The notes under the pieces are model-generated. The model was not told the DNA's origin. It saw only the letters and a program-made list of their open reading frames with translations, and made no database searches. Shown here one piece after another: positions 10,382-24,780 of a stretch of 64,000 nucleotides of DNA; the stretch's first letter is position 1; every line of letters starts with the position of its first letter. This DNA comes from a virus. Taxonomy: Duplodnaviria > Caudoviricetes. The stretch lies in the IMG/VR virus record IMGVR_UViG_3300044678_002325, positions 1-64,000 of that record, one strand, 5' to 3'. The position numbers were made by a program, and so were the translations under genes.

Positions 10382-10404
10382 AATTTCTTTTTTTAAAATG
10401 TTAG

Positions 10405-10487
10405 TACCCAAGGTGGGAGTCGAACCCACAAGTCATTATGACGATTGATCCTAAATCAATTGCGTTTGCCAATTCCGCCACTCAGGC
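10405..10487 (-). tRNA. tRNA-Leu(UAG)
   Basis: Cloverleaf; ATTGA-TTTAGGA-TCAAT; long variable arm. Confidence 0.92.
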
Positions 10488-10724
10488 ATAAATAAATCTT
10501 TTATCTGGGAACTTCCGTATGACTGTCAAAATAGTCGGAGGTAAGTAAGATTTTACTTTACAACATACATACCAGTTTTCTCTATGTATGTTTTTTTTAA
10601 AGGTTAAATCCAAATTTGATTAGATAAACCAATCCTAATACAATAAGTCCAAGCATTGCTGTTGAAAACATATACATTGCAAATTCTTTTTGTTTTTCTG
10701 TTTTACCTTGATTTTCATTTTTCA

Positions 10725-10964
10725 TTATAAAAATTTTTGATAGTCTATAAAATTTTTTTCAATCCACATTTTTCCAGTTACTTCATTATCTTCTTTTTTA
10801 CTTTTTTCATAAATTTCAGACATTACATATCTTTCATTTTGTAACTCATCCCAAAGATAAGAAATAACTATGTTTAATTTTCTTTTTTCCTCTGTCTCAT
10901 GTTTAGCTTCTCTAGCAAGTTTTTCAACTCTGTCTATAACATTTTGAAGGGGTGTGTTTTTCAT
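10725..10964 (-). CDS. Hypothetical protein
   Basis: ORF track, start MKNTPL. Confidence 0.6.
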   Translation of the reverse strand: MKNTPLQNVIDRVEKLAREAKHETEEKRKLNIVISYLWDELQNERYVMSEIYEKSKKEDNEVTGKMWIEKNFIDYQKFL

Positions 10965-10965
10965 A

Positions 10966-11151
10966 TTAATCATTTTTTTTATCATTATCAAGTTCTAACT
11001 GACTTTCACTAAATATATGTAACATACCATTATCAATTAATTCTGCAACAATTCTTGTTTCACCAGATGTGGTTTGGAATACCGCAACAACTATACCTGG
11101 GAATTTGTAACCTTTCGGTTTGTAAACTTTGTCTCCTACTTTAAATTTCAT
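10966..11151 (-). CDS. Small SH3/KOW-like protein
   Basis: MKFKVGDKV...GIVVAVF...FSESQLEL. Confidence 0.6.
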   Translation of the reverse strand: MKFKVGDKVYKPKGYKFPGIVVAVFQTTSGETRIVAELIDNGMLHIFSESQLELDNDKKND

Positions 11152-11177
11152 AATTTTTTTTTAAATAATATAATGAT

Positions 11178-11561
11178 TTATTTGTAAGATGAAAAATATT
11201 TTTCAGTGTAATGTTTTAGAATACCATCACTGTTGGTGTATTTGGTATTAATTGTATTACTGAAGAAAAAACTATTATCATCCAATATAAGCAAGTGTTC
11301 GTCTCTAATGGACTCAAAATTTGTTAATCCATCTGTGTTGAATTGATTAACACGACTTTTAAAATTCTCCAATTTTTCTTTAATACAATTTAAATCAATA
11401 TTTGGAAAAAGATATGTTAATCGTGTCAATGAATTTGGATAGATGAATTGTAGTTTTGAATCTTCTTTAAGAAAGATTAAAATACCAACATTTACTTGTT
11501 CATCCAATACCACTGAAGGTCGGAATTTTAATAAACTATATTCTGCGTTTTTGAAGGTCGT
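11178..11561 (-). CDS. DUF3037-like protein (start uncertain)
   Basis: YSLLKFRPSVVLDEQVNVGIL motif extends upstream of the GTG; no ATG, in-frame ACG at 11561. Confidence 0.55.
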   Translation of the reverse strand, partial: TTFKNAEYSLLKFRPSVVLDEQVNVGILIFLKEDSKLQFIYPNSLTRLTYLFPNIDLNCIKEKLENFKSRVNQFNTDGLTNFESIRDEHLLILDDNSFFFSNTINTKYTNSDGILKHYTEKYFSSYK

Positions 11562-11625
11562 TAGATTTTAATTTAAGTTATCAATTTACATAGAAATAGA
11601 ACTCTTGTACTTCTTTAAAATTTAG

Positions 11626-11698
11626 TACACCCAACAGGATTCGAACCTGTAACCTATTGCTTAGAAGGCAATTGCTCTTCCAGTTGAGCTATGGGTGC
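11626..11698 (-). tRNA. tRNA-Arg(UCU)
   Basis: ATTGC-CTTCTAA-GCAAT; canonical cloverleaf. Confidence 0.95.
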
Positions 11699-11710
11699 TA
11701 ATATATATTG

Positions 11711-11824
11711 TAGTCAAGATAGGATTTGAACCTATACGACCCTTCACATTTCTGTTGCATCGGTCTTTCTTATGGGACAAACGTACACCATCTTACTTAG
11801 CGTCTTCCATTCCGCCACTTGACC
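11711..11824 (-). ncRNA. tRNA-like RNA with expanded anticodon region
   Basis: GGTCAAG/CTTGACT-A acceptor, D arm and T arm intact; ~60-nt non-canonical insert. Confidence 0.75.
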
Positions 11825-11926
11825 ATATTAATTAAAACATCTTGTTCAGGGTAGGTAGGAGCCCGTTACCTTTAATCTGAACCTCTTTGCCATCATTTTC
11901 TTTACGAGTTGATGTTTTAAATGTTG

Positions 11927-11996
11927 TAGTCCTGACAGGATTCGAACCCGCACAATGATTTTTTTCTCAAGCGTTTTCCAATTTCGCCACAGGACT
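11927..11996 (-). ncRNA. tRNA-like RNA (AGTCCTG family), shrunken anticodon arm
   Basis: AGTCCTG/CAGGACT-A acceptor, D arm, TTCGAAT T loop; anticodon arm TGA-GAAAAAAA-TCA. Confidence 0.75.
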
Positions 11997-12005
11997 ATTG
12001 TCTCA

Positions 12006-12037
12006 CAAAATTACGATTTGCTTTTCTAATTTCCAAA
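12006..12037 (-). promoter_or_regulatory. Bacteroidetes primary-sigma promoter
   Basis: TTTG-N20-TAATTTTG; near-identical copies at 15967 and 21754. Confidence 0.75.
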
Positions 12038-12104
12038 TCTTTTTTAAACTTTTTTTATTTTAAGATGAAAGTAATATCCCATTTTTTAGTATCTAAGTAT
12101 TTAA

Positions 12105-12371
12105 TTAAAATTCAAGTTCTTTGATTGAATAATCTGGATATCTTGTTTGGCCAAACTCATCAATCAACATTATATTTATATGAGTACAACCTTTCTTTTT
12201 GGCTGTGGTCAAATTTTCTTCAGTCAGATTAACCAAATTAACACCCCACATTTTTATCCATCCCTCATTTGGATTAAATACCTCATTGATTAGTATATCA
12301 GTTGAGTTGGGATAAGATTTCAATACCTTGTTAATACAAGTGAAGTTTTTTTCTAAAGGATTAGTTATCAT
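12105..12371 (-). CDS. Hypothetical protein
   Basis: ORF track. Confidence 0.6.
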   Translation of the reverse strand: MITNPLEKNFTCINKVLKSYPNSTDILINEVFNPNEGWIKMWGVNLVNLTEENLTTAKKKGCTHINIMLIDEFGQTRYPDYSIKELEF

Positions 12372-12411
12372 TTTGATTTTTTTTGTGTGTTAATATTCAA
12401 CTTACATTACT

Positions 12412-12442
12412 ATAAACCTTTTTACCTATCATTTAGTTCCAA
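12412..12442 (-). promoter_or_regulatory. ECF-sigma-like promoter, copy 1
   Basis: TTGGAACTAAATG-N11-GGTTTAT, three copies with identical spacing. Confidence 0.6.
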
Positions 12443-12462
12443 AGGTTAGAATTATTTTTTAA

Positions 12463-12607
12463 TAGTCCTGACAGGATTCGAACCTGTATTTACAACAACG
12501 CCAATCTGACACATCCGTGCCAGTAGAGGAATTGAACCTCTATATTGTAACCCCCTTTGGTCTAAGTGGATTTGCACCACAGCGTCTTTACATTCCGCCA
12601 CAAGACT
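12463..12607 (-). ncRNA. tRNA-like RNA (AGTCCTG family) with nested second T arm
   Basis: AGTCTTG/CAGGACT-A acceptor; insert contains AGAGG-TTCAATT-CCTCT and CTGGCAC-GGAT-GTGTCAG. Confidence 0.7.
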
Positions 12608-12708
12608 GAGTAAAAGAATACGCTTCTGGGGCTTCACCAGCCTTCTATATTCATGTACCTCTCAGTTAAGAGTCAGTACTGAGCTTTTTTTCTTTGCGTA
12701 TTCCTTTG

Positions 12709-12780
12709 TAGTCCTGACAGGATTCGAACCCATACTCTCTCATCCATACATGAGGCCTTTACCAATTTGGCTACAGGACT
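12709..12780 (-). ncRNA. tRNA-like RNA (AGTCCTG family), 6-nt anticodon loop
   Basis: CTCAT-GTATGG-ATGAG arm; normal acceptor, D and T arms. Confidence 0.75.
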
Positions 12781-12993
12781 AAATTCCACTTTAAATTACA
12801 AACAAAATTACGTATAACAAAATTAATCCCAACAATGCTAAATCAAAATAAATAAAAGTTTTACTAAACTTTATTTCATCTCTCATATGTTCAAGTTTTT
12901 CATTGTTGAGTTTTAATTGCTCTTGTAAAATTTGAAGTTTTGTTTCTAAATCACTCATAATTAAAATTTAAGTTTGTTAAAAAATTTATTTTG

Positions 12994-13064
12994 TAGTCCT
13001 GACAGGATTCGAACCCGCATCCCCCTCTGTTAGGATTCGTGACTTACCATTTGCCTACAAGACT
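12994..13064 (-). ncRNA. tRNA-like RNA (AGTCCTG family), aberrant anticodon arm
   Basis: AGTCTTG/CAGGACT-A acceptor and T arm; no 5-bp stem with 7-nt loop. Confidence 0.7.
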
Positions 13065-13069
13065 TAATT

Positions 13070-13342
13070 TTAATCTAAACTATCTAATCCCATACAATAT
13101 CTTATGAATCTTTGTTCACCATCTTCTGTCTTATATTTGTATTCGCCTTCATAAATTGTATAATAACCTCTGTCATCAAATGGTTCAAAACCGATATACT
13201 CAACACTTTCATCAACTATAGGACCTTCAACACCCATATATTGATTCAAAAGTAATTCAGTTTTTTCAATACTACTTGCAGTTAGAATAGGCATTCTATC
13301 GTTGCTATCCAAGATTACATAAATAAGTGTCATAATATTCAA
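13070..13342 (-). CDS. Hypothetical protein (paralog of 22241-22486)
   Basis: Shares PI..A.....LL..YMG...RFI.YCM..D.L pattern. Confidence 0.65.
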   Translation of the reverse strand: MNIMTLIYVILDSNDRMPILTASSIEKTELLLNQYMGVEGPIVDESVEYIGFEPFDDRGYYTIYEGEYKYKTEDGEQRFIRYCMGLDSLD

Positions 13343-13351
13343 AGTTTTAAA

Positions 13352-13582
13352 TTAAAAATATTTTCTCAAATAATATTCATATGTATCACGACTTGGAGCT
13401 GTGTTATTTTCATCAAGATGAAGAAACATATACCCTTTATAAGCGTTAGATTCATGTAAGATTTTCTCAAGTATAGTAATTATACCATTCTTTTCTTCCA
13501 TTGTGTAATTTGGATTCACCAATTGTTTGTTAGCGAAGTCTTTGATGTACTCAACTTGGATTGTTTTTTTCTCTTTAGCCAT
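13352..13582 (-). CDS. Hypothetical protein
   Basis: ORF track; TATCTTTG promoter element upstream. Confidence 0.6.
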   Translation of the reverse strand: MAKEKKTIQVEYIKDFANKQLVNPNYTMEEKNGIITILEKILHESNAYKGYMFLHLDENNTAPSRDTYEYYLRKYF

Positions 13583-13917
13583 TGTGATTATGTGTTTCAG
13601 TGATTAATAAGACAAAGATAGTTGTTCTTCCTGAATTATTCACTTTTTACTATGTTTTTTTTTAAAAAATTTTGGGGTATCTTCCAAGTTAGCTACACTT
13701 TTTCAATACCCCCTCATCCTGTAGAAACGGACTAGTGTTTTTTGCCTTTTGTAGAAAATGCGAGTGACTATCTCGTGTAAACCGCCAACAATCTGGTCTT
13801 GGCAACCCTGGTTATAGTGACATATTAACCATAATACGTGGTTAGGTTAACATATTAACCAAATACGGCAATTGAGGCTTGCAGACCACCCAATCTATCT
13901 ACATCAATTGGGATTTT

Positions 13918-14003
13918 TGGAGCCGTTTGTCAGATTCGAACTGACGTGTCCTAACGGAACTGGGTTACAAATCCAGTGCAATCAACCACTATGCGAAAAC
14001 GGC
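13918..14003 (-). tRNA. tRNA-Thr(UGU) with long variable arm
   Basis: CTGGA-TTTGTAA-CCCAG; encoded CCA; 14-nt variable region. Confidence 0.85.
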
Positions 14004-14009
14004 AAATAA

Positions 14010-14261
14010 TTATCTTCTTTTATAAACATAGGTTATTGTATCCCCTATTTCATATACATCACTTCTTCTTGTCATTATCAATTCATCACAATCGGTTTTA
14101 TAATTATATCTTTTACCAAATTCAATTGTGGATGGAGATTCTGTAATATACATCGTATCAATTACACACTTCTTAACAATATCACCAGGTTCTATTGTGG
14201 GGTGTTTGTTACAGGATACAAAGATAGTGATTAAAGTTGAAAACCAAAATATTTTTTTCAT
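14010..14261 (-). CDS. Lipoprotein
   Basis: IFVS-C lipobox. Confidence 0.6.
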   Translation of the reverse strand: MKKIFWFSTLITIFVSCNKHPTIEPGDIVKKCVIDTMYITESPSTIEFGKRYNYKTDCDELIMTRRSDVYEIGDTITYVYKRR

Positions 14262-14863
14262 TTTTCCATATTATTTATAACCCAAGTAGAAAATTTCTTA
14301 TGTCCAGAAGGTGCAAAGTGAATCCCATCCCAAGTATCACTATAAAACATTGTAGTGTCCATAGGAATTATTTTACAATTCTTTAATCCAGTTTTTTCTT
14401 TAACCATTAGTTTTTGAAACTCAATGTATCTTCCAACACATCTCTTGGTTGTTTCTGCGTCATACACAGTCTTTGTTGTTACTTGAGCTGGATTAAAACC
14501 CACAATTACAATAGGTTCAATTCCTCTTCTATTACAACTATCAACCATCATCTGAATGTTATTCACCGCCCCTTGTAAATCTACCATAGAAAACGCATCA
14601 TTACATCCACCATAAATGAATACCTGAGAGAAAGCTGAATCTTTTTTAAAACAAGCATTCATTGTCGTTCTCATATAATCCGTTCTAACACCACCTTTTG
14701 CTAGGTTGAGACTTTGATATCCAAAATGTTTTGAAACTTGATCCTGCCACCCACCAGGAGCACAGGTTAAACTATCACCGATATATAATACCCTACGTGG
14801 GGGTGTATATGACCAAGATGTCAATAATACAAATAATACTAAAAATACTAAAAATTTTTTCAT
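14258..14863 (-). CDS. SGNH/GDSL hydrolase, secreted
   Basis: IGDSLT, GGCND, DGIH blocks; signal peptide. Confidence 0.85.
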   Translation of the reverse strand: MKKFLVFLVLFVLLTSWSYTPPRRVLYIGDSLTCAPGGWQDQVSKHFGYQSLNLAKGGVRTDYMRTTMNACFKKDSAFSQVFIYGGCNDAFSMVDLQGAVNNIQMMVDSCNRRGIEPIVIVGFNPAQVTTKTVYDAETTKRCVGRYIEFQKLMVKEKTGLKNCKIIPMDTTMFYSDTWDGIHFAPSGHKKFSTWVINNMEK

Positions 14864-14892
14864 AAATTAAATTTAAAACAACGTTTATTTTT

Positions 14893-14969
14893 TGGTGGAG
14901 GATGTCGGCTTTGCTCCGACCACCTCTTGTGTGCAAAACAAGTGCTCTTGCTGAATGAGCTAATCCCCC
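14893..14969 (-). tRNA. tRNA-Ala(UGC), atypical T loop
   Basis: GGGGGAT/ATCCTCC with G3:U70; TTTGCAC loop; T loop AGCAAAG; CCA encoded. Confidence 0.85.
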
Positions 14970-15042
14970 TTTTTGTATTATGTAATTGTGCTTAAATTTT
15001 AGACGTAAGGAAGCTATACACCAACCGACTTACTTTCTCCTA

Positions 15043-15255
15043 TTACATAATTTTTCTCCATAATCCACCAGCCAAACATTTGAAATCATCAAAACTTGTT
15101 ACTCTGATTGGGAAATCTTCATATTTCCATCTTTTACAAGTTATATGAATTTTACCAGTTATAAAGTCTTTTGTTAAGAAGGTATATAAACCATCACGAG
15201 ACTTAATATGGATTTTATCCCCAGTTCTAAGATTTCTAAATTCAGACTGATTCAT
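15043..15255 (-). CDS. Hypothetical protein
   Basis: ORF track. Confidence 0.55.
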   Translation of the reverse strand: MNQSEFRNLRTGDKIHIKSRDGLYTFLTKDFITGKIHITCKRWKYEDFPIRVTSFDDFKCLAGGLWRKIM

Positions 15256-15271
15256 AATGAATTTTTAAATT

Positions 15272-15346
15272 TGGAGCAGTAAGCGAGACTCGAACTCGCA
15301 ACATCTTGTTTGGAAGACAAGAACTCTACCATTGAGCTATTACTGC
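15272..15346 (-). tRNA. tRNA-Gly(UCC)
   Basis: CTTGT-CTTCCAA-ACAAG; U73; CCA encoded. Confidence 0.95.
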
Positions 15347-15354
15347 AATAAGAG

Positions 15355-15440
15355 TGGGTGCCGAGGGATTCGAACCCCCAAGTTTAGCACGTGGCAACTG
15401 ATTTACAGTCAGCATCCTTCACCAATTTGGATAGACACCC
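15355..15440 (-). tRNA. tRNA-Tyr(GUA)
   Basis: GCTGA-CTGTAAA-TCAGT; long variable arm. Confidence 0.92.
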
Positions 15441-15712
15441 TTTTACAACTTACAAGTTCTACTACAAATAGAACTTAACCCAAATGGTCGACATTTCAAT
15501 CGTAAAGTTTTCAACCCGTTACACAGGTGTTCACTTATTTAAGTCCACCTAACACTAATATTATGTAGTCAGATTCCCAACCTGTTAATTTAATACCCAT
15601 TTGTAGTGCAAGTATTATAAAACTACTATATTAGACGCTACTCAACTTCCATTAGATTGCTTTAGTTCGATTATTTTACTAATCAGTTACCGCCATTAGT
15701 TAAGTTGTTTAG

Positions 15713-15787
15713 TTGCAAGAGTGGGAGTCGAACCCACATGGTACGGCTTATGAGACCGAGCTGGAACCACCTCCAGTCCATCTTGCA
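15713..15787 (-). tRNA. tRNA-Met(CAU) (possibly initiator-type)
   Basis: CGGT-CTCATAA-GCCG; atypical D arm. Confidence 0.8.
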
Positions 15788-15796
15788 ATTTGTTTG

Positions 15797-15868
15797 ACGC
15801 AAGGGTGGGAATCGAACCCACAGCTTCTAGGTTATGAGCCTAGCGGACGACCGTTGCCCTTCCTTGCA
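15797..15868 (-). tRNA. tRNA-Met(CAU)
   Basis: CTAGG-CTCATAA-CCTAG. Confidence 0.85.
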
Positions 15869-15878
15869 TAATGTTTTG

Positions 15879-15951
15879 TACACCATACGGGATTTGAACC
15901 CGTGACTCCTCCGTGAAAGGGAGGTGACTTATACCCCTTGTCGAATGGTGC
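15879..15951 (-). tRNA. tRNA-Glu(UUC)
   Basis: CCTCC-CTTTCAC-GGAGG. Confidence 0.93.
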
Positions 15952-15966
15952 GTTTTTATTGTATCA

Positions 15967-15998
15967 CAAAATTACGATTTGATTTTCTTAATTCCAAA
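15967..15998 (-). promoter_or_regulatory. Bacteroidetes primary-sigma promoter
   Basis: TTTG-N20-TAATTTTG. Confidence 0.75.
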
Positions 15999-16019
15999 TC
16001 TTTTTTAAACTTTTTTTTG

Positions 16020-16103
16020 TACCCAGGGCGGGACTCGAACCCGCACAACCTTACTGGTCACAAGATTTTAAGTCTTGCGTGGCTACCATTACACCACCTA
16101 GGC
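16020..16103 (-). tRNA. tRNA-Leu(UAA)
   Basis: CAAGA-CTTAAAA-TCTTG; long variable arm. Confidence 0.95.
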
Positions 16104-16287
16104 AAAATAAAGAGAAGTTTTGAATAAGAACTCTCCACTTCTCTTTTTGATATCTTGTATTCGTTATGGTGAATATCAAGTCACCATAATATAACTTATG
16201 TTGCCTTCGTCCGCCCTAATTGACAATAAGTAAACTCCTTAGAACGTAAGTCACATCTTAATCTCGTGACATAGATATTATTTTAAT

Positions 16288-16434
16288 TTACCACCAATGA
16301 CCAATATCAGTCATATCATCCCACCATTTTGCTACCCAAGAATCTGGATATTTTTTTATGATATAGTTACCAATAAAACCCAAAAGCATTATAAAAATAG
16401 CAAGAATAATAAAGTTTATCATAAAGTTTGTCAT
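16288..16434 (-). CDS. Small membrane protein (48 aa)
   Basis: MTNFMINFIILAIFIMLLGFIG...WW*; downstream of ECF-like promoter. Confidence 0.55.
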   Translation of the reverse strand: MTNFMINFIILAIFIMLLGFIGNYIIKKYPDSWVAKWWDDMTDIGHWW

Positions 16435-16460
16435 AATCTATTTTTTTAAGTTACATTATT

Positions 16461-16491
16461 ATAAACCAACCTTCATCTCATTTAGTTCCAA
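16461..16491 (-). promoter_or_regulatory. ECF-sigma-like promoter, copy 2
   Basis: TTGGAACTAAATG-N11-GGTTTAT. Confidence 0.6.
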
Positions 16492-16508
16492 CTTTTAAAA
16501 CTTTTTTT

Positions 16509-16583
16509 TGGCGGTACCAAGGGGAATCGAACCCCTACCATAAGAGTGACAACCTTATATTCTTGCCGTTAAACTATGGTACC
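16509..16583 (-). tRNA. tRNA-Asp(GUC)
   Basis: TAAGG-TTGTCAC-TCTTA; G73; CCA encoded. Confidence 0.93.
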
Positions 16584-16615
16584 AAATATTTTTCCCTCAA
16601 TTTCAATGAACATCA

Positions 16616-16647
16616 CAAAGATACAATTACTAATTCACATTTTCAAA
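16616..16647 (-). promoter_or_regulatory. Bacteroidetes primary-sigma promoter followed by boxA-like GTTCATTGAAAT
   Basis: TTTG-N20-TATCTTTG. Confidence 0.65.
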
Positions 16648-16654
16648 CACTCTC

Positions 16655-16690
16655 AAAAAAAAATCCATCTTTTTTTAGGAAGATGGATTT
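16655..16690 (-). terminator. Attenuator terminator of tRNA block B
   Basis: AAATCCATCTT-CCTAAAAA-AAGATGGATTT plus T run. Confidence 0.8.
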
Positions 16691-16717
16691 GATTTTATTA
16701 ACAATTAAAACCTTATA

Positions 16718-16789
16718 TCATACCATCTCCATCCGAGGATTTCTACCCTCAGCTCCAGTCGTTAAGTCCATATAGAGATTGTGTTTCAT
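16718..16789 (-). CDS. Putative leader peptide B (MKHNLYMDLTTGAEGRNPRMEMV)
   Basis: 23-codon ORF just upstream of the terminator; its 3' GGAGATGG is complementary to the terminator 5' arm CCATCTTC. Confidence 0.75.
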   Translation of the reverse strand: MKHNLYMDLTTGAEGRNPRMEMV

Positions 16790-16850
16790 TTGTGAAGTTT
16801 TTACTATTTTTTTATTAAATATAACGATATAATACAAAAGGTCAAGTTGG

Positions 16851-17168
16851 TTACAAAAATTGTGAAATAATTTGTGCTACTTTATACCCTGTGAATGCTC
16901 CTAATGCCGCTGAACCAGGTAAAACAATGAATTTACCAAAATTACTTTCATATTTCGCACGATTAACAATATAAGATATTAAGATATAATATAAGAAAAA
17001 ATTAATCAATACGGCAAGATCAATTTCTTTGGCCATAAACACAACTATTGAATTACCAAAGAAACCCCAACTGAAGTTAATCAATGTTTCTCTTATTAAT
17101 TCACTAACAGATGTCTTAGCATCGGCTACCTTAATTTCTTTTGTAAATATATTTTTTTTCTTTTTCAT
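16851..17168 (-). CDS. Membrane protein
   Basis: Three hydrophobic segments. Confidence 0.65.
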   Translation of the reverse strand: MKKKKNIFTKEIKVADAKTSVSELIRETLINFSWGFFGNSIVVFMAKEIDLAVLINFFLYYILISYIVNRAKYESNFGKFIVLPGSAALGAFTGYKVAQIISQFL

Positions 17169-17170
17169 AA

Positions 17171-17686
17171 CTATTCTAAAATATCCCCAAATCCGTTCTC
17201 ATCCAACCAATCCTTATCATCATTTATGTCTTTTAATTCATATTCAAACGCGAATATATTACATACAACATCGTCAGCACTTGAAAAAGTTTCGTGAATA
17301 AAATCAAAATCATCTGGTTCTAATTGAAACTTTTCTTTCTTTAAACATTTGAATAATTCCTTTGATGTTTTGAAAACATTAGGAGTTGTATAAGTTTTTA
17401 ATCTACCCTCCATTTCCATATGTTCAAATTTCTTATAGAATTTATCATTAAACACCAAGATGTTTTCAGTTCCCCATTCATTTAGAACTTGCATTATAAA
17501 TGTTTTTAACCCTTGAAAACATGCTGTACGATAGTCATCAAATTGTTGTTGAACGGAGACATCCCCAAATTCAACTTCACTTGTTTCCTTTTCGTGTTCG
17601 GCAATTTTATCCAATGCCATTAGTTGGAGTTGTTCCCATGTCGTATCATAGGGTTTATAGAAATTCACAATTACCATTGGTGTCAT
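17171..17686 (-). CDS. Hypothetical protein
   Basis: ORF track. Confidence 0.65.
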   Translation of the reverse strand: MTPMVIVNFYKPYDTTWEQLQLMALDKIAEHEKETSEVEFGDVSVQQQFDDYRTACFQGLKTFIMQVLNEWGTENILVFNDKFYKKFEHMEMEGRLKTYTTPNVFKTSKELFKCLKKEKFQLEPDDFDFIHETFSSADDVVCNIFAFEYELKDINDDKDWLDENGFGDILE

Positions 17687-17695
17687 ATTTTTTTG

Positions 17696-18079: not shown

Positions 18080-18082
18080 ATC

Positions 18083-18715: not shown

Positions 18716-18717
18716 AA

Positions 18718-19038: not shown

Positions 19039-19069
19039 AATAAATAGTTTTAATTGTTGATAAAATTTG

Positions 19070-19142
19070 CATAGATGGAGGGACTCGAACCCCCAACCGG
19101 CTGGTTTGGAATCAGCAACTCTACCAATTGAGCTACATCTAC
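19070..19142 (-). tRNA. tRNA-Trp(CCA)
   Basis: GCTGA-TTCCAAA-CCAGC; G73. Confidence 0.92.
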
Positions 19143-19151
19143 ATTTGTTTG

Positions 19152-19236
19152 AGGTTGGGGAGGGATTCGAACCCACGATGAATTTTCATTCGATAGTTTT
19201 GCAGACTAGTGCCTTAACCAACTCGGCCACCCAACC
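19152..19236 (-). tRNA. tRNA-Cys(GCA) with long variable arm
   Basis: TAGT-CTGCAAA-ACTA; U73; 16-nt variable region. Confidence 0.88.
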
Positions 19237-19258
19237 CTATTGTTTCTTTTTATATTAC

Positions 19259-19717
19259 CTATAACTCAATAAAGATATCATAAGTTCCATTTTCATAGTA
19301 ATTTGTTGAACAATTTCTTAATATGATACCATCATAATTTTTTTCAATTAACATTTCTTTATATTTGTCAACCCCACCGAATTTGTATATTTCATCCATA
19401 TAAACTTGAAATGAGTCATAATCTTCATCATCTGAATTAACAACATATGGATTTTCAAATTTTATTTCTTTAGTTAAAATCTTACCCTTAGAACCTTTTA
19501 TATTTTCATATCTATCAGTATCAACAGAATAATCAATAAGTCCAGCAAACCATTTGGCCATAGTTAAATTATCTGTCCAAAATACACCCATTCCATCATC
19601 AGATACTTTACCATAGGTAGCGTTAATTCTATCTCCAATACCACGATATACTATAGTATAATTTTCAAATTCTTCTTTTAAAATTGTTTTAATACGTATT
19701 CTTAAATCTTTCATCAT
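19259..19717 (-). CDS. Putative ADP-ribosyltransferase-fold (ART-PolyVal-like) protein
   Basis: VYRG...GVFWTDN...A.WFA...NPYV...YDGII pattern; N-terminal IKTILKEE motif. Confidence 0.55.
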   Translation of the reverse strand: MMKDLRIRIKTILKEEFENYTIVYRGIGDRINATYGKVSDDGMGVFWTDNLTMAKWFAGLIDYSVDTDRYENIKGSKGKILTKEIKFENPYVVNSDDEDYDSFQVYMDEIYKFGGVDKYKEMLIEKNYDGIILRNCSTNYYENGTYDIFIEL

Positions 19718-19953
19718 TTTTTTACTATAAATATATTAAATCCCCCAACTTCACCCCACTCGTCAGTGGGGGATAGGTTGAGTTAAGCTTCCTAACTTAT
19801 ACCTTGGGCTATTCGTTTACAAGCAACAAGACCACAGTAGTGAGCAGTTCTTATGGGATGCCTCGTGGTACTATTATAACATAAAGAACAATTACCTACT
19901 AGCACCTCACACCGAAATTGTAGGCAGGCTCGGTCCCTTAATTGTTCAAATCT

Positions 19954-20202
19954 TTATTTCACGATTGTCTGTATTCCCAAATCTTTGGGGTGTTTTCCAC
20001 TTAGTTTATGAGTCACAGACCCATCACAAGTTGTAAAATACTTGTATCCTTTATCCCAAAATCGATAGACCTTACATCCATCAACTTTAAATAGAAGCTC
20101 AACGTTATAATTCGCATTATCTGTTTTTAGTTCTTCTATACCTTCTCTTTGACAACTAAGGAATAATACAGAAATTAATCCAAGGAATAATATTTTTTTC
20201 AT
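19954..20202 (-). CDS. Lipoprotein (DUF4884-like)
   Basis: LFLS-C lipobox; VELLFKVDGCKVYRFWD. Confidence 0.7.
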   Translation of the reverse strand: MKKILFLGLISVLFLSCQREGIEELKTDNANYNVELLFKVDGCKVYRFWDKGYKYFTTCDGSVTHKLSGKHPKDLGIQTIVK

Positions 20203-20231
20203 CGTTTTTGTAATTTAAAAATTATTTAATG

Positions 20232-20316
20232 TGTCCTTACCTAGATTCGAACTAGGATTATACTTCTCGTCTCCACTTTGTAAGAGTGGGATGTTTAACC
20301 ATTACACCATAAGGAC
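20232..20316 (-). tRNA. tRNA-Val(UAC) with long variable region
   Basis: CCACT-CTTACAA-AGTGG; 16-nt variable region. Confidence 0.85.
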
Positions 20317-20513
20317 TATTTATAAAAGAATGATTGGGCTATACTGATAATTGTACTCCAATAGAACCGAGACCGCGTATCTTAGTTACCTTTCCTAGTT
20401 TACAGTCAAAGTCCTGAACTTTCGTACCATCCTTAATTTTTATTTTCAGACCCATAATGTCAAAAAATATGTCTACTATTTTCTAATAACACCTTTCGTA
20501 ACTTATTGTGTTG

Positions 20514-20588
20514 TGACCCTGGGGAGATTTGAACTCCCGCTCCCAATATTAAAAGTATTGTGCTTTAAACCAGCTAAGCTACAGGGTC
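20514..20588 (-). tRNA. tRNA-Lys(UUU)
   Basis: CAATA-CTTTTAA-TATTG. Confidence 0.93.
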
Positions 20589-20801
20589 ATTTGTTATTTT
20601 TTTAAGTGAGTTACATCTACATAACACATTGAAGTAATGAATTGGTTCTATATGGTAGTTATTTTTTTCATCCAAATAAATCACCACTTCCATATCCACA
20701 ATTGCTCTAATTTCGATGTGTTTATTGTTTGGATTATCTTCACTATAATCAATAAACAACTTATCACCAACCTTAAATTCACCAATTTTTACATTAACCA
20801 T
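20574..20801 (-). CDS. Hypothetical protein
   Basis: ORF between tRNAs; 3' end overlaps tRNA-Lys. Confidence 0.5.
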   Translation of the reverse strand: MVNVKIGEFKVGDKLFIDYSEDNPNNKHIEIRAIVDMEVVIYLDEKNNYHIEPIHYFNVLCRCNSLKKITNDPVA

Positions 20802-20817
20802 AATTTATTAAAATTTG

Positions 20818-20891
20818 CGTCCCAGGTAGGATTCGAACCTACGATCACTCGATTAACAGTCGAGAGCTCTAAACCACTGAGCTACTGAGAC
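20818..20891 (-). tRNA. tRNA-Asn(GUU)
   Basis: CTCGA-CTGTTAA-TCGAG; G73. Confidence 0.95.
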
Positions 20892-20899
20892 ATTTGTTG

Positions 20900-20974
20900 T
20901 TGTCCTGGTGAGGCTCGAACTCACGACTTTTCGCGTATCAGACGAATACTCTAAACCAACTGAGTTACAGGACA
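20900..20974 (-). tRNA. tRNA-Ile(GAU)
   Basis: TTCGT-CTGATAC-GCGAA. Confidence 0.92.
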
Positions 20975-20989
20975 TTGTTAAAATTGTTG

Positions 20990-21063
20990 TGGTTCCACTA
21001 GGACTTGAACCTAGAACCTACCGATTATGAGTCGGGTGCTCTAACCAATTGAGCTATAGAACC
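20990..21063 (-). tRNA. tRNA-CAU, probably Ile2 (lysidine)
   Basis: CCGA-CTCATAA-TCGG; body resembles ileX-type tRNAs. Confidence 0.8.
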
Positions 21064-21076
21064 TTTAAAAATCTTG

Positions 21077-21148
21077 TATAGGTGACTGGGATTGAACCAG
21101 CGACCACTAGTTCCCAAAACTAGCACTCTACCTCTGAGCTACACCTAT
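21077..21148 (-). tRNA. tRNA-Pro(UGG)
   Basis: CTAGT-TTTGGGA-ACTAG. Confidence 0.92.
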
Positions 21149-21308
21149 ATTATTAAACCATATATAAATCCAAACAAAAGAACAATTAGAAATATAATTC
21201 CAACTATAAACAAGTCTGAGTTCTTTGTTTTGTAAGACAAAATTAAGAATAAGATTCCAATTATCAAAAATAAAAGACCAATAATTACTAACATTTTTTA
21301 ATTTTTTG

Positions 21309-21402
21309 TAGTCCTGACAGGATTCGAACCCGTAACGTACATCTCATATCTTTGATGCAAGCACTTGATAATAGCTGCGTCTACCAATTCCGCCACAGGA
21401 CT
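21309..21402 (-). ncRNA. tRNA-like RNA (AGTCCTG family)
   Basis: Perfect acceptor, D and T arms; irregular anticodon arm plus extra hairpin. Confidence 0.75.
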
Positions 21403-21614
21403 ATATTTAACTTATCTAAAATTTTCTCATATTTACAAAACAACAATCCAACTTTTTAGGTCTATCTATGTCATCTCTACCGTCAATTCTTGATTTTATA
21501 TAGTCAAAGATTTCTTTTTGTTCATCAGCGTTTAAACTATTGTTGATAGTTTCAATTCTAATCTCAAATCTTACCCAATAATGTGTGTCCATAATTTTAG
21601 TTTTTAATTTTTAG

Positions 21615-21744
21615 TAGTCCTGACAAGATTCGAACTTGTATTAAGCTACATATTGTTTATGTTAGACCTTTCGCTCCAATCCTAGTATTAAGGAGTGTCT
21701 GAACATTCAATCTTCACTCTACCCTTAACTTTCGCCACAGGACT
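21615..21744 (-). ncRNA. tRNA-like RNA (AGTCCTG family), 130 nt
   Basis: AGTCCTG/CAGGACT-A acceptor and ACAAG-TTCGAAT-CTTGT T arm enclosing a long irregular hairpin. Confidence 0.7.
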
Positions 21745-21753
21745 ATTGTATCA

Positions 21754-21785
21754 CAAAATTACGATTTCATTTTCTAATTTCCAAA
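21754..21785 (-). promoter_or_regulatory. Bacteroidetes primary-sigma promoter
   Basis: TTTG-N20-TAATTTTG directly upstream of a tRNA-like RNA. Confidence 0.75.
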
Positions 21786-21898
21786 CACTTTGGAATATTT
21801 TTCTTCATTTAATATGATTAGGTGGGTCGCTCATCTCCACTGTCTGCATTCCTTTGAGTTATGAACTCAACTGCTCTAATCTTATTAATATTTTTCTG

Positions 21899-21985
21899 CG
21901 GAGGACAGAGGACACGAACCCCACACCATACTTGGTGCCACTCGCTTAGCAGGCGGTGGTAACGACCCTGATTACTTTATCCTCC
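21899..21985 (-). tRNA. tRNA-Ser(GCU)
   Basis: CGC-CTGCTAA-GCG; long variable arm; G73. Confidence 0.85.
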
Positions 21986-21990
21986 AATTG

Positions 21991-22143
21991 TTAAATCCTT
22001 TTTCTTGAATTTTCTAAAATTGTTATTCCTAATAGAATTATACCAAGTACAATAAGTGTGTTAGGTGTACCTATTAATTTTGGAAGGGGCAAAAGAATAC
22101 TAAGCACAAAACCGAAAATCAAGATGAACAATAAATTTCTCAT
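21991..22143 (-). CDS. Small two-TM protein (50 aa)
   Basis: MRNLLFILIFGFVLSILLP...; downstream of ECF-like promoter. Confidence 0.55.
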   Translation of the reverse strand: MRNLLFILIFGFVLSILLPLPKLIGTPNTLIVLGIILLGITILENSRKRI

Positions 22144-22179
22144 TTTTTTAAACTTTTAATTGTTTCTAAATTCATTTAC

Positions 22180-22210
22180 ATAAACCCCTTCCCTTACCAT
22201 TTAGTTCCAA
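22180..22210 (-). promoter_or_regulatory. ECF-sigma-like promoter, copy 3
   Basis: TTGGAACTAAATG-N11-GGTTTAT. Confidence 0.6.
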
Positions 22211-22240
22211 GATTTAATTTTTTTTTGTGGTATCTAAGTT

Positions 22241-22486
22241 TTAAATTAATTCATCTGTCGGCATACAATACATAATGAATCGGTGTGAACCATACTCATT
22301 TTCGTAATAATAACTTCCTTGATTTACCTCATCATTATTGGGTTCAAACATTATGTATTTAGAAGTGGGGTCAACACCAATTCCCATATATTTGTCTAAT
22401 AATTCCAACACTCTTTGAAGGGTTGTTGCGGAACAAATAGGTATCCCCCATTTTTCGTGAACAATAAAATACATTGTATTTTTCAT
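22241..22486 (-). CDS. Hypothetical protein (paralog of 13070-13342)
   Basis: Shared motif pattern. Confidence 0.65.
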   Translation of the reverse strand: MKNTMYFIVHEKWGIPICSATTLQRVLELLDKYMGIGVDPTSKYIMFEPNNDEVNQGSYYYENEYGSHRFIMYCMPTDELI

Positions 22487-22509
22487 ATTTGTTATTTTAA
22501 ATTTTTTTG

Positions 22510-22582
22510 TAGTCCCAGCCCGATTTGAACGGGCATCTTATCATCCGTAGTGATAGATTCTAATCCATTGAACTATGGGACT
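22510..22582 (-). tRNA. tRNA-Arg(ACG)
   Basis: TATCA-CTACGGA-TGATA; acceptor AGTCCCA/TGGGACT. Confidence 0.9.
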
Positions 22583-22592
22583 AAATTTGTTG

Positions 22593-22679
22593 CGGAAAGT
22601 TGAGGTGTCGATCCCCATACAATACAATTGTACCTATCGTTTTCAAGACGTAGACCCAGGCCGCTGAGCTTAACTTTCC
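22593..22679 (-). tRNA. tRNA-Ser(UGA)
   Basis: CGT-CTTGAAA-ACG; long variable arm; G73. Confidence 0.85.
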
Positions 22680-22742
22680 AATTTATTTTTTTAATGTAAT
22701 TAGACTTTATTATTTAAATGATATTTATAGTAAAACAAATTT

Positions 22743-23006
22743 ATGAAAAAGATAGTAAGATTAACAGAATCAGATTTAATTAGACTGGTTAAAAGAGTAA
22801 TTAATGAAGACAACTTGAAAGAGTTTGGTTCACGTAAAGATTATGAACATGAAAAAAGCTGGAATACCAAATCTCCAAAAGTATACGATACTCAAAACCC
22901 AGAACAAGATGATGACACTAAAACAATTATGGATTACATTAAAAAATTATTCGGATTAGGTTTAAAACCTAAAGAAATTAGAAAAAAATTAAAAGAATTG
23001 GAATAA
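22743..23006 (+). CDS. MKKIVRLTESDL-motif protein
   Basis: N-terminal repeat-family peptide; TATTTATA upstream. Confidence 0.75.
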   Translation: MKKIVRLTESDLIRLVKRVINEDNLKEFGSRKDYEHEKSWNTKSPKVYDTQNPEQDDDTKTIMDYIKKLFGLGLKPKEIRKKLKELE

Positions 23007-23018
23007 TCTTTATTTAAG

Positions 23019-23091
23019 TAGGTATGATGAGAATCGAACTCACTAAACCAACATCCACAATGTTGTCCCTCTCCATTTGGGTTCATACCTC
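23019..23091 (-). tRNA. tRNA-His(GUG)
   Basis: CAACA-TTGTGGA-TGTTG; encoded G-1, A73. Confidence 0.88.
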
Positions 23092-23268
23092 ATATAATCC
23101 ATTTTCAGATGGTTTTTTGTCCATCTTCTCTGCGAGTTCCTTTTTGCTGATGTCGTTTTCACGCAATAGCTGATTGGTGCGAACCACCAGGTCGGCATAC
23201 CAATCTACAAAGATTTCTACATCTTTCGGTGTGCTTTTCAGCAATCTATCTACGGTTTTGCTTCTCAT
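23083..23268 (-). pseudogene. Truncated XRE-family HTH (antitoxin-like) fragment
   Basis: ...LLRENDISKKELAEKMDKKPSE breaks off before the recognition helix; GC higher than flanks. Confidence 0.55.
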
Positions 23269-23283
23269 TGTCTTATAGTTGTT

Positions 23284-23359
23284 TGGTGGTGGGAGTAGGA
23301 ATCGAACCTACATTAAATAATCTTCAGCTATTCGCCTTGACCAACTTGGCAATCCCACC
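23284..23359 (-). tRNA. tRNA-Phe(GAA)
   Basis: AATAG-CTGAAGA-TTATT; CCA encoded. Confidence 0.9.
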
Positions 23360-23364
23360 ATAAT

Positions 23365-23559
23365 TTATATTTGATTACCTTCTTTTAAAGTTGAAGACAT
23401 TTCACTACCATCCCCAAATTCTTGGTAAAAATAAACAAACATTTTTCCATTAATGTCAGTTCCTTTATGTAAAATTCTTGTGACTTTTTTTAGTTTACCA
23501 AACATATTTGGAATAACATCCCCAACTTCAAGATTTAAAATTTGATTTTTAGTAATCAT
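23365..23559 (-). CDS. Hypothetical protein
   Basis: ORF track. Confidence 0.55.
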   Translation of the reverse strand: MITKNQILNLEVGDVIPNMFGKLKKVTRILHKGTDINGKMFVYFYQEFGDGSEMSSTLKEGNQI

Positions 23560-23659
23560 AAAATAAATATTTTAAGTATGAAAAAATTTAGAGTAAGTAT
23601 CCACCACGTTTAAGGCTGGTTGTGGACAGTGCTACCTACGACCTTTCCTTACTCTCCCA

Positions 23660-23691
23660 CAAAATTACAACCCTTTATTTTTATTTCCAAA
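23660..23691 (-). promoter_or_regulatory. Bacteroidetes primary-sigma promoter
   Basis: TTTG-N20-TAATTTTG. Confidence 0.7.
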
Positions 23692-23767
23692 TGTTTTATC
23701 AAGTTTTTTTTAAAGTGGTCAAATTTAACCATTTTAAACTACACCATATTTATGATAAAATAGAATT

Positions 23768-24517
23768 ATGAAAATTATAATTAATGAATCCCAATATAAA
23801 ACAATCCTTAAAGAATTTATGGGTTCAATTGAATCAAGTAAGTTTATGAAAATTTTTAAAAAATTTTTGGAGGATAAAAATATTGTTATACTTTATGATG
23901 ATTTTAGAGAATTTACAATGCACACAAGTATAAAAATACCTAAAACAAACTTTGATGATTATCTAACCATATTTTCAGAGATTGAAAAATTTATTGAAAT
24001 TTATGGGTGGTTTATTTCAAGTTATTTAGTGATTTATAATCACCCTAATACATCAATTTATGATGAAAAGGACATTAAATTCTTAGATTATAGAAAATTA
24101 GTTGATTGGCTAAAAACGAATGAGTCAAATATCCAACTAAAACATATAATGTTAAATTTAGAAAAAAAATACACAGAACAAAATAAAGGCCATAATGTTT
24201 TTTACCACGTAACAGATAAGAAAAACACTGAAAAAATAATGACTTATGGATTAAGACCTAGAAAATCACAAAATAAATATTTCAATTATTCTGATAGAAT
24301 TTACCTAGCTGATTATGTCAAAGTAGCTTATTATATAAACGACCTTTTTAAAGATCCTAACGCCAAAACTGATTATGGTAAAGAAGGTGTTGTCGTATTT
24401 GAAATTACCTTACCTGATTCATTTAAAACTTATTTTGACCCAAAAGCACCATTGTCATCCTATACCTTAGAACCAATACCACCTAAATATATAGAAATTT
24501 ACGATTATCTAGATTAG
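23768..24517 (+). CDS. MKIIINESQ-motif protein with C-terminal ART-fold (Tpt1/KptA-like) domain
   Basis: FYHVT...I...GLRP...IYL...VVFEI...IPPKYI pattern. Confidence 0.65.
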   Translation: MKIIINESQYKTILKEFMGSIESSKFMKIFKKFLEDKNIVILYDDFREFTMHTSIKIPKTNFDDYLTIFSEIEKFIEIYGWFISSYLVIYNHPNTSIYDEKDIKFLDYRKLVDWLKTNESNIQLKHIMLNLEKKYTEQNKGHNVFYHVTDKKNTEKIMTYGLRPRKSQNKYFNYSDRIYLADYVKVAYYINDLFKDPNAKTDYGKEGVVVFEITLPDSFKTYFDPKAPLSSYTLEPIPPKYIEIYDYLD

Positions 24518-24520
24518 ATG

Positions 24521-24593
24521 TTCCCCCTGATGGAATTGAACCACCATCCTCAGAACCAAAATCTGATGTAATAAGCCTTTATACCAAGGAGGA
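24521..24593 (-). tRNA. tRNA-Gln(UUG)
   Basis: TCAGA-TTTTGGT-TCTGA; U1-A72. Confidence 0.9.
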
Positions 24594-24623: not shown

Positions 24624-24656
24624 AAAAAAACCCTGAACGTCTTTTGTCCAGGGTTT
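24624..24656 (-). terminator. Attenuator terminator of tRNA block A
   Basis: AAACCCTGGAC-loop-GTTCAGGGTTT plus T run; followed by boxA-like GTTCTTTGACAT. Confidence 0.8.
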
Positions 24657-24684: not shown

Positions 24685-24780
24685 TCACGAGATTCCACCT
24701 GAACCATAAGAATCCGCTGACCAACAATTTTTAAATTGCGGTTGCACTGAATTACTAATATGGTTTATCGATGTTCTCAT
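24685..24780 (-). CDS. Putative leader peptide A (MRTSINHISNSVQPQFKNCWSADSYGSGGIS)
   Basis: 31-codon ORF after a TATTTATA motif; contains GTTCAGG, identical to the terminator 3' arm and so an alternative partner for CCTGGAC. Confidence 0.78.
   Translation of the reverse strand: MRTSINHISNSVQPQFKNCWSADSYGSGGIS

Follow-up and report, generated by a model that had tools for sequence, protein, structure and literature searches.

What decides when a phage transcribes the tRNA genes that it carries? To our knowledge, the control of such genes is largely unknown, and phage tRNA arrays are usually treated as passive cargo. The question is raised by a stretch of 64,000 nucleotides (nt), positions 1 to 64,000 of the IMG/VR virus record IMGVR_UViG_3300044678_002325 (Duplodnaviria; Caudoviricetes), which was analysed as a whole and is called the window here. 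ARAGORN predicts 26 tRNA genes in the window, every one on the minus strand, between positions 10404 and 24593. A pair of short open reading frames (ORFs), leader A and leader B, stand ahead of two blocks of these genes, each followed by an intrinsic terminator. A first-pass annotation of the DNA had read leader B as an attenuator whose codons match the tRNA block behind it, with leader A as a non-homologous partner. Each testable sequence-level prediction of that reading held, and we consider it likely that leader B acts as a multivalent, ribosome-mediated attenuator of transcription, controlling read-through into tRNA block B. The evidence consists of a codon match for which chance is excluded, a codon composition that is kept in relatives, leaders that follow their own arrays, and a predicted antiterminator with a compensatory change.

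Two tRNA blocks, each behind a codon-matched leader

Leader B, its terminator, tRNA-Asp as the first gene behind them and a list of 11 tRNAs were all found where the first-pass annotation had placed them. The 11 named tRNAs stand; an odd tRNA-like gene (12780..12708) had been left out of that list. Block B is ordered Asp-GUC (16583..16509), Leu-UAA, Glu-UUC, CAU, CAU, Tyr-GUA, Gly-UCC, Ala-UGC, Thr-UGU, odd tRNA-like genes, Arg-UCU and Leu-UAG. Downstream of leader B we find tRNA genes and small ORFs only, with no genes for biosynthesis or for synthetases. Block A is ordered Gln, Phe, His, Arg-ACG, Ser-GCU, an odd gene, Pro, CAU, Ile-GAU, Asn, Lys, Val, Cys and Trp. Between 9500 and 26000 the minus strand has two terminator-like sites only, one after each leader (16690..16661 and 24656..24628); since there is no other in 16.5 kb of tRNAs, the terminators define two blocks. 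An Rfam cmscan of positions 9000-27000 (E <= 1) found no leader family and no T-box, and its matches were the tRNA clan and the Plastid-ycf2 5'UTR family, which overlaps tRNA genes on the opposite strand.

ORF B appears to be a short, translatable leader ORF upstream of tRNA genes. Its start context, A-rich and without a Shine-Dalgarno sequence, resembles that of other genes of the phage. Frame and stop are kept in all relatives; the TGA has become TAA in the L004-type relatives and in L017, and synonymous changes occur.

The match between leader and block lies in codons 5-16 of leader B, the core (Table 1), which the first-pass annotation had quoted exactly. After sorting codons into decoding classes, with Leu, Arg, Ser and Ile split by box, all 12 codons fall into block-B classes, and they cover all ten of these with one or two codons each. 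We scanned every codon position of the window on both strands, 127,928 six-frame positions in all. Stretches of 12 codons that lie entirely in block-B classes and cover at least eight of the ten occur at leader B alone, where all ten are covered; lowering the limit to at least seven classes gives two positions, the runner-up having seven. The core of leader A, 18 codons long, covers 13 of the 14 block-A classes, again at a single one of the 127,928 positions, and the runner-up stretch reaches 10. Analytic estimates of the chance of such a match are 7.7e-9 (six-frame codon frequencies) or 4.0e-7 (long-ORF codon usage) for leader B and, depending on the codon model, 6.4e-8 or 4.0e-9 for leader A. 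Allowing for 300 positions, the chance is still <= 1.2e-4 per leader; the stretch lengths in this test were picked post hoc, and the margins are very large. A codon match by chance is excluded.

The two leaders divide the code as the two blocks do. L, E, D, G, A, T, Y and M are absent from core A (SINHISNSVQPQFKNCWS), and S, I, Q, F, C and W from core B, as the annotation had said. Counted by block, 0 of the 12 codons of core B belong to block A and 0 of the 18 residues of core A to block B. That the leaders are not homologous was also borne out, as the stretches they have in common are A/T matches of at most 9 nt.

Leaders and arrays in related phages

Relatives were collected in three scans. 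The neighbouring 171-aa protein led to seven viral loci (L002-L008), to which an alignment of that protein added L017, also viral, and ten new metagenome loci; the DUF2828/DUF7788 protein led to 293 viral relatives, 80 of which were kept. Leaders were examined in 15 of these 80 loci (L029, L035, L037, L042, L043, L045, L046, L049, L055, L059, L060, L077, L081, L102 and L105); the remaining ones either lacked tRNAs at the locus or nearly duplicated loci that were already represented. L014, which came from an exact 18-mer scan of viral contigs, proved to be an unrelated locus without tRNAs and was dropped.

The close family has the same tRNA order and both leaders. Several relatives have an unchanged leader B peptide, among them L017, whose DNA identity is ~84%. 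Thr and Ala are exchanged in L003/L019 (LYMDLTAGTEGR), and the peptide reads LYMDLTIATEGR in L008, LYMDLTITTEGR in L025 and LYMDLTTTEGR in L026/27. The leader B sequences of L024 (MYYTLNTGAERLTEDKFSRNGNV) and L037 (MKNYLYTGETLRAEDLNLRNGRV) cannot be aligned with the core of the window; each has a run of 13-14 codons of block-B classes, with both Leu boxes and AGA. Leader A reads MKNTINHIKRSILPQSNFCWSV... in L017, MKRSNKHNVISIQPQFSNCWI... in L035 and MKNFFKHINISVQPQFSNCWSKPSVCN... in L043, and its forms in L017, L035/42, L037 and L043/45 contain 18-26 block-A codons whose order has changed. In leader B, codon 19 is Arg (CGG), Gln (CAA, in L026/27) or Trp (TGG, in L025), and all of these maintain the inner hairpin. 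Because the residue varies while the hairpin is kept, it is the pairing that is conserved and not the residue. Across the leaders, what is conserved appears to be the codon set and the RNA structure, not the peptide.

Leaders also change with their arrays. In L008, a CAU tRNA orthologous to the block-A CAU gene of the window sits at the end of block B; leader A of L008 has ATC where the window has ATA, and ATA has been gained in leader B. The same block-A slot is occupied in L002, L004 and L005 by a gene with a UAU anticodon loop, which favours an ATA decoder in this slot. The three CAU tRNAs (initiator, elongator Met or Ile2) are not distinguishable by sequence, and the ATA argument rests on orthology and on the UAU slot.

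A stronger test comes from more distant phages (G001, G002 and G003), whose tRNAs are grouped differently. G001 has three arrays and three leaders. Array 1 (Ile-GAU, Asn, Tyr, Trp, Phe, Pro, Gln, His, Ser-GCU, Ile-UAU, Arg-ACG and Cys) is preceded by the leader MITNNIHISNRNQWYQPCFINN... and a terminator, and 12 of its 12 classes are in the leader; Tyr, whose tRNA sits in block B of the window, is one of them. The leader of array 2 (Ser-UGA, Asp, Val, Thr, Lys, Ala, Gly, Leu-UAG and Trp) holds eight of nine classes, counted on a 33-codon ORF that was chosen over an overlapping 25-codon ORF in another frame, both having been seen. Array 3, with Leu-UAA, Glu, Arg-UCU and a CAU tRNA, follows the leader MKNTNIISLLERLERFSLMEMV, whose core is LLERLER and whose 3' end is homologous to leader B of the window. 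The leaders of G002 and G003 match 7/7 and 12/12 classes of their own arrays.

We then compared seven leaders with seven arrays in a matrix of enrichment scores, for which CAU tRNAs could match both ATG and ATA under the same rule in all pairings and background codon frequencies for all phages were taken from the long ORFs of this window. For six of the seven leaders the best-fitting array is their own. Among the 5040 possible pairings the true one comes 2nd when whole ORFs are scored and 1st for the first two thirds of the ORFs, and 65 of the 67 tRNA classes of the seven pairs are found in their own leader. Among nine distant loci a matched leader is clear in three (L046, L049 and L059) and unclear in three others (L055, L060 and L102); for L046 the terminator nearest the array was used, and another one lies 260 nt farther upstream, with different ORFs. 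The putative regulatory codons thus appear to be cognate to what the downstream genes supply. What is observed comprises the anatomy of the leaders and a codon match that is not random, is conserved and co-varies with tRNA content.

The arrays themselves have some unusual members. Odd tRNA-like genes lie at 21308-21402, 12708-12780, 12462-12607, 11710-11824, 11926-11996 and 12994-13064, all on the minus strand. ARAGORN assigns them 2-base anticodons or introns of 21-226 nt, and they match the Rfam tRNA family with 30-44 bits. Several have a common acceptor and T-arm (AGTCCTG...GGTTCGAATCCTGTCAGGACT) and unusual or very long anticodon regions. Between phages that are otherwise 95-98% identical (the window versus L002, L004, L005, L008 and L017), tRNA genes at the same position are often non-orthologous; tRNA-Asp, for example, is 100% identical in L002 and has no blastn match in L004. 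This pattern suggests that single tRNA genes are replaced like cassettes. At 5228-5392 of L002, a slot also found in L004 and L005, Pro and Asn are separated by two tRNA-like genes that apparently have no normal D-arm; their anticodon loops are CTTATAC (UAU) and CTGATAC (GAU), and they stand in place of the canonical CAU and Ile-GAU genes of the window. Finally, block B of L005 has a group I intron match at 12287-12478 (Rfam RF00028, 58.6 bits), where ARAGORN finds no Leu-UAA gene; the intron probably interrupts a tRNA gene.

Predicted structures, promoter-like sites and surroundings

In the minimum-energy fold of leader B, codons 4-6 pair with ATGGAGAT (segments 1:2); its other elements are an inner hairpin of eight pairs and the terminator. 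The inner hairpin (CTGAGGGT/ATCCTCGG) is the pause-like hairpin that the first-pass annotation had seen before the terminator. The 1:2 pairing and this pause-like hairpin are both present in the predicted minimum-energy and centroid folds. Folding z scores relative to shuffled sequences are -2.35 for leader B and -4.28 for leader A. The pairing of the 3' end of the ORF with the 5' arm of the terminator, also claimed in the annotation, was recovered as GGAGATGG:CCATCTTC, with eight pairs including one G-U and a calculated energy of -11.2 kcal/mol. The predicted 2:3 antiterminator would be exclusive with the terminator and would be covered by a ribosome at the end of the ORF.

Where a ribosome would have to stall for the antiterminator to form was modelled with a mask set in advance to 15 nt behind and 12 nt ahead of the first base of the A-site codon. 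Folding of the full-length RNA under ribosome masks cannot discriminate between positions, because the terminator is formed in every state; the test was therefore run on RNA truncated before the 3' arm of the terminator. In this model the antiterminator of leader B stays intact for a ribosome at codons 2-16, is weakened for one at codon 17 and is lost for positions 18 up to the stop (24), so that the last codon of the core, codon 16, is also the last stall position at which the antiterminator is fully formed. In the non-homologous leader of L024 it is intact at codons 2-15, and the matched run comprises codons 2-15. In leader A, whose antiterminator strand begins at nt 76, codon 21 is the last at which a stall would be permissive, and it is also the last codon of the core. 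An automatic search placed an antiterminator strand in the 3' part of the ORF in six of seven leaders. Matched codons account for 90 of 118 positions ahead of the footprint boundary, as against 40 of 82 beyond it (Fisher p 8e-5). All clear leaders have a strong hairpin with a T-run within ~25-50 nt downstream.

Only single compensatory events can be read from the relatives, because the close family hardly varies and L024 cannot be aligned within the ORF. In L025 an altered base in the terminator loop turns the outermost 2:3 pair from G-C into A-T, an event specific to the 2:3 pairing; in L026 the same position is A.C. All relatives retain the hairpin of terminator B, in which L024 and L037 show a compensatory T-A to C-G change, and the stem of terminator A has a compensatory G-C to A-T change in L008.

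A separate tendency concerns the three to five codons right after core B, which belong to classes of the other block. In the window they read N P R (16733-16741), and in L024 (2873-2887) K F S R N, all block-A classes; leader A has a mirror tendency after its core (A D. Y G). It looks as though codons of a leader's own block were kept away from positions at which stalling would promote termination.

Upstream of leader B lies a promoter-like site with 10 of 12 consensus matches, whose TTGAC and TATATTTAAT are invariant or nearly so in relatives. Leader A has a promoter-like motif 15 nt before its ATG, as do many genes of the phage. The first-pass annotation had cautioned that a promoter sits just downstream of terminator B. 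A promoter-like site is indeed present there, and such sites also occur inside both blocks, so the caveat reaches wider than was claimed. Sites of the form TTTG-N17-22-TAnnTTTG number 17 in the window versus 6.6 +/- 2.5 in shuffled sequences, and none of 100 shuffles reaches 17. The site at 16616-16647 is a variant of a near-identical promoter-like repeat with four copies (Table 1). TAnnTTTG is described as the sigma-A -7 box of flavobacteria (PMC9723704). We dropped the idea that ATATTTAT(A) is a phage-specific motif rather than a host-type promoter, as other leaders carry TTG..TAnnTTTG-like boxes upstream.

Table 1. Positions of the leaders, the tRNA blocks, their predicted control elements and neighbouring genes in the window
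Feature	Position	Strand	Detail or basis
Leader ORF B	16718..16789	-	ATG 16789 .. TGA 16718; 23 codons + TGA; peptide MKHNLYMDLTTGAEGRNPRMEMV
Sensor core B (putative)	16742..16777	-	codons 5-16, CTC TAT ATG GAC TTA ACG ACT GGA GCT GAG GGT AGA
Segment 1, ATCTCTAT	16772..16779	-	partner of ATGGAGAT (segment 2) in full-length fold; minimum-energy and centroid structures
Inner hairpin, CTGAGGGT-AGAA-ATCCTCGG	16733..16752	-	in minimum-energy fold
Segment 2, predicted antiterminator strand GGAGATGG	16723..16730	-	codons 20-23, adjoins stop
Intrinsic terminator hairpin B (segments 3 + 4)	16661..16690	-	11 pairs, then T-run to ~16652
tRNA block B	10404..16583	-	ARAGORN; Rfam
Promoter-like TTGACC-16-TATATT, upstream of leader B	16818..16845	-	10/12 consensus matches
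Promoter-like TTTG-N20-TATCTTTG, between terminator B and tRNA-Asp	16616..16647	-	candidate bypass promoter
Promoter-like repeat TTTGGAAATTAGAAAA..AAATCGTAATTTTG	12006-12037, 15967-15998, 21754-21785, 23660-23691	-	four near-identical copies
Leader ORF A (partner)	24685..24780	-	peptide MRTSINHISNSVQPQFKNCWSADSYGSGGIS; core = codons 4-21, block-A classes only
Predicted antiterminator strand A, GGTTCAGG	codons 26-28 of leader A	-
Terminator A	24628..24656	-
tRNA block A	19069..24593	-
Small SET-domain protein	17696-18079	-	Pfam
DUF2828/DUF7788 protein, upstream of leader A	25203-26666		Pfam
Hsp70/DnaK homologue, full-length	39506-41365	-	Pfam E 4.7e-256

The parent viral record has 78,750 bases and a CheckV completeness of 27%, and the window is therefore a piece of a large phage. 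The G+C content of the window is 29.6%. A Shine-Dalgarno-like word precedes 2 of the 63 long ORFs, and the regions upstream of the genes are A-rich; Shine-Dalgarno sequences are described as lacking in Bacteroidetes (PMC6847099). The best 80 genomic matches of the Hsp70 protein, at 68-76% identity, carry nearly all Bacteroidota names, mostly Flavobacteriales (judged by eye, untallied), the exceptions being two betaproteobacterial names and one match without a name. Twenty of the 22 listed sequencing runs contain the stretch, none of them an RNA run, and the DNA runs are labelled as lake water metagenomes. The host group of these large phages is probably freshwater Flavobacteriales. Pfam gave no family for the neighbouring ORFs of 171, 105, 210, 152 and 249 aa. 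Against named phage records, blastn of positions 15800-17800 returned tRNA-sized matches only, and tblastn of the neighbouring glycosyltransferase returned none.

Between the DUF2828/DUF7788 gene and leader A lies a conserved non-coding stretch (24830-25200, minus strand), preceded by TTGACT-17-TAAATT. It contains a T-arm-like piece (ACAGGTTCAAACCCTGT) and two similar hairpin modules (GGATAG..CTATCC and GAATGA..TCATTC), each followed by TTCAGCAA-like words. There was no Rfam match to this stretch, which may be a structured RNA linked to the neighbouring protein.

Proposed mechanism, alternatives and meaning

In terms of the leader-peptide attenuator model as outlined in PMC3082878, events at block B would run as follows. 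RNA polymerase would start at the promoter-like site upstream of leader B, or arrive from block A, and transcribe the 23-codon ORF. With all ten classes well supplied, the ribosome would reach the stop and cover GGAGATGG, the terminator would form and transcription would end. Were any of the ten aminoacyl-tRNA classes short, the ribosome would stall in codons 5-16 and leave GGAGATGG free, which would then pair with CCATCTTC; no terminator would form and the polymerase would enter the tRNA genes. Leader A would do the same for block A, and together the two would provide a supply-and-demand feedback on the phage's own tRNA genes. Possible triggers are the A/T-rich codon demand of the phage or a loss of host tRNAs in infection. 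Within this scheme, that the ORF is translated, that ribosomes stall on it, which way the response goes and how much of the tRNA transcription runs through the attenuator are all inferred. The likely host group can use attenuation, since leader-peptide attenuation is described as likely for amino-acid operons in Flavobacterium psychrophilum (PMC9723704). With slightly less confidence, we favour a group-wide tRNA homeostat, in which each array would be headed by a leader that lists its tRNAs (3 to 14 classes) and slow decoding would raise the transcription of that array.

Several points weigh against attenuation, or limit its reach. On full-length RNA the terminator is the more stable fold at every ribosome position, and the antiterminator appears only when the 3' arm is left out of the RNA; since the terminator always wins on full-length RNA, a kinetic assumption is essential. 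In the mask model of leader A, segment 1 re-pairs with segment 2 at codons 17-21, and G003 departs from the expected geometry, as the segment that pairs most strongly with the terminator arm is found early in its ORF. With one codon per class the response should be weak compared with the codon runs of his and phe leaders. The match has its own gaps. Leader A has three UCN Ser codons without a Ser-UGA tRNA and no CGN codon despite an Arg-ACG gene, CTG in leader A of L017 and AAC in the core of L024 are foreign codons, and leader B of L008 keeps TTA where no Leu-UAA tRNA was found in its block B. Leader B lacks an Ala codon in L025, L026 and L027, whose arrays lie off the contigs. Three of the nine distant loci are without a matched leader: L081 and L105 have no short ORF before the terminator, and in L077 the sole short ORF stands before a terminator at the end of the array. 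Moreover, much tRNA transcription may bypass the attenuator from internal promoter-like sites; because such sites lie past the terminator and inside the blocks, the attenuator can govern only part of the tRNA transcription. In most relatives a 159-codon ORF with its own promoter-like site stands between terminator B and tRNA-Asp (L004 10998-11477; also L002, L003, L005-L008, L017 and L024). It is absent from the window and from L022, and its 159-aa product has no Pfam family.

Some of these points would also suit a translated ORF that is tuned to the tRNAs and acts through another output, with ribosome speed affecting transcript stability or processing, Rho-type polarity along the untranslated tRNA precursor, or the amount of a released short RNA. 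The codon match and the co-variation demand a function linked to translation, not a particular one, the terminator wins thermodynamically on full-length RNA, and in array 2 of G001 and in G002 the stop codon lies well past the antiterminator strand, with G003 misfitting as well. We nevertheless hold such an output to be unlikely, given the hairpin and T-run close behind every clear leader, the recurrence of a strand that mimics the 3' arm of the terminator at the ORF end of non-homologous leaders, the double change in L025 that preserves the 2:3 pairing, and the ending of the matched run at the footprint boundary. We give a smaller chance to a general sensor of translation capacity, responding to ribosome availability or elongation rate without class specificity, with the partition of codons as a by-product. 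Having only one or two codons per class would agree with such a sensor, as would codons 2-4 of leader B (K, H, N), which belong to the other block, yet stalls there favour the antiterminator in the mask model. It would have no need to avoid the codons of the other block, yet both cores do avoid them, and it hardly explains why leaders track their own arrays across phages or why LLERLER precedes a Leu/Glu/Arg array.

A free-standing small peptide gene, or a chance ORF beside a terminator that ends an upstream protein-coding operon, is very improbable. A terminator would be expected before a tRNA block anyway, and the identical leader B peptides of several relatives, L017 among them, are what a peptide gene would give. 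Chance, on the other hand, is excluded by the scan, the analytic odds and the pairing test, and a function of the peptide is at odds with leaders whose peptide differs across L024, L037 and G001 while the composition stays, and with residue 19 being R, Q or W while the RNA pairing is kept.

Attenuation by leader B, if it takes place, would share its parts with known systems. Leader-peptide attenuators control the trp, his, pheA, leu, thr and ilv amino-acid operons. As in these, there is a leader ORF with putative regulatory codons, a predicted 1:2 hairpin, a predicted 2:3 antiterminator at the 3' end of the ORF, a 3:4 terminator with a U-run, and a stop codon by segment 2. Unlike them, the leader would regulate tRNA genes instead of biosynthetic enzymes, and would do so in a phage; it also has one or two codons for each of 3 to 14 classes, not a run of one or two kinds of codon. 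The ilvGMEDA and ilvBN leaders sense Leu, Val and Ile, and the thr leader Thr and Ile, so that several amino acids are sensed by one leader, as proposed here. In ilv and thr there are two or three amino acids, set by a shared pathway, whereas here there would be ten (leader B) or ~thirteen (leader A), set by the tRNA genes that follow. The pheM leader controls pheST, and T-box riboswitches control aminoacyl-tRNA synthetase genes. As in these systems, tRNA charging or supply would feed back on a component of the decoding apparatus, but pheM and T-boxes regulate synthetases, not tRNA genes, and a T-box binds uncharged tRNA directly and needs no ORF.

Phage tRNA arrays are seen as compensation for codon usage, or for the loss or cleavage of host tRNAs. 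Like other such arrays, the present ones comprise a large tRNA set in a big phage with A/T-rich codon usage. We know of no cellular precedent for an attenuator of tRNA genes. We considered E. coli pheV, which like block B is a tRNA gene with its own promoter region, and set it aside, as the 105 nt between yqgA and pheV in K-12 are without a Phe-rich ORF and terminator; the pheV leader is given as 3-4 nt in PMC7049720. In the phage-tRNA literature that we searched, arrays are treated as cargo and no codon-matched regulatory leader is described, and a full-text literature search, judged at the level of abstracts, found no leaders of this kind before tRNA genes.

If the reading is true, leader B would be the first attenuator known to control tRNA genes, and these leaders would include the most multivalent attenuator known. 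Attenuation would then reach beyond amino-acid pathways into the decoding apparatus itself, would involve more than ten sensed amino acids where one to three were known, and would extend from cells to phages. A leader that spells out its array would mean that the supply of tRNA is monitored for one codon after another and put right at the level of transcription, and the phage would have a built-in sensor of host tRNA depletion, for example by anticodon nucleases or host shut-off. Each leader would be a compact natural sensor of decoding speed for chosen codons. For annotation, the leaders would give a sequence-only read-out of the tRNAs that are treated as one transcription unit, and with it a rule for finding such units in tRNA arrays. 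Finally, why and when phages need their own tRNAs would become directly testable by reporters.

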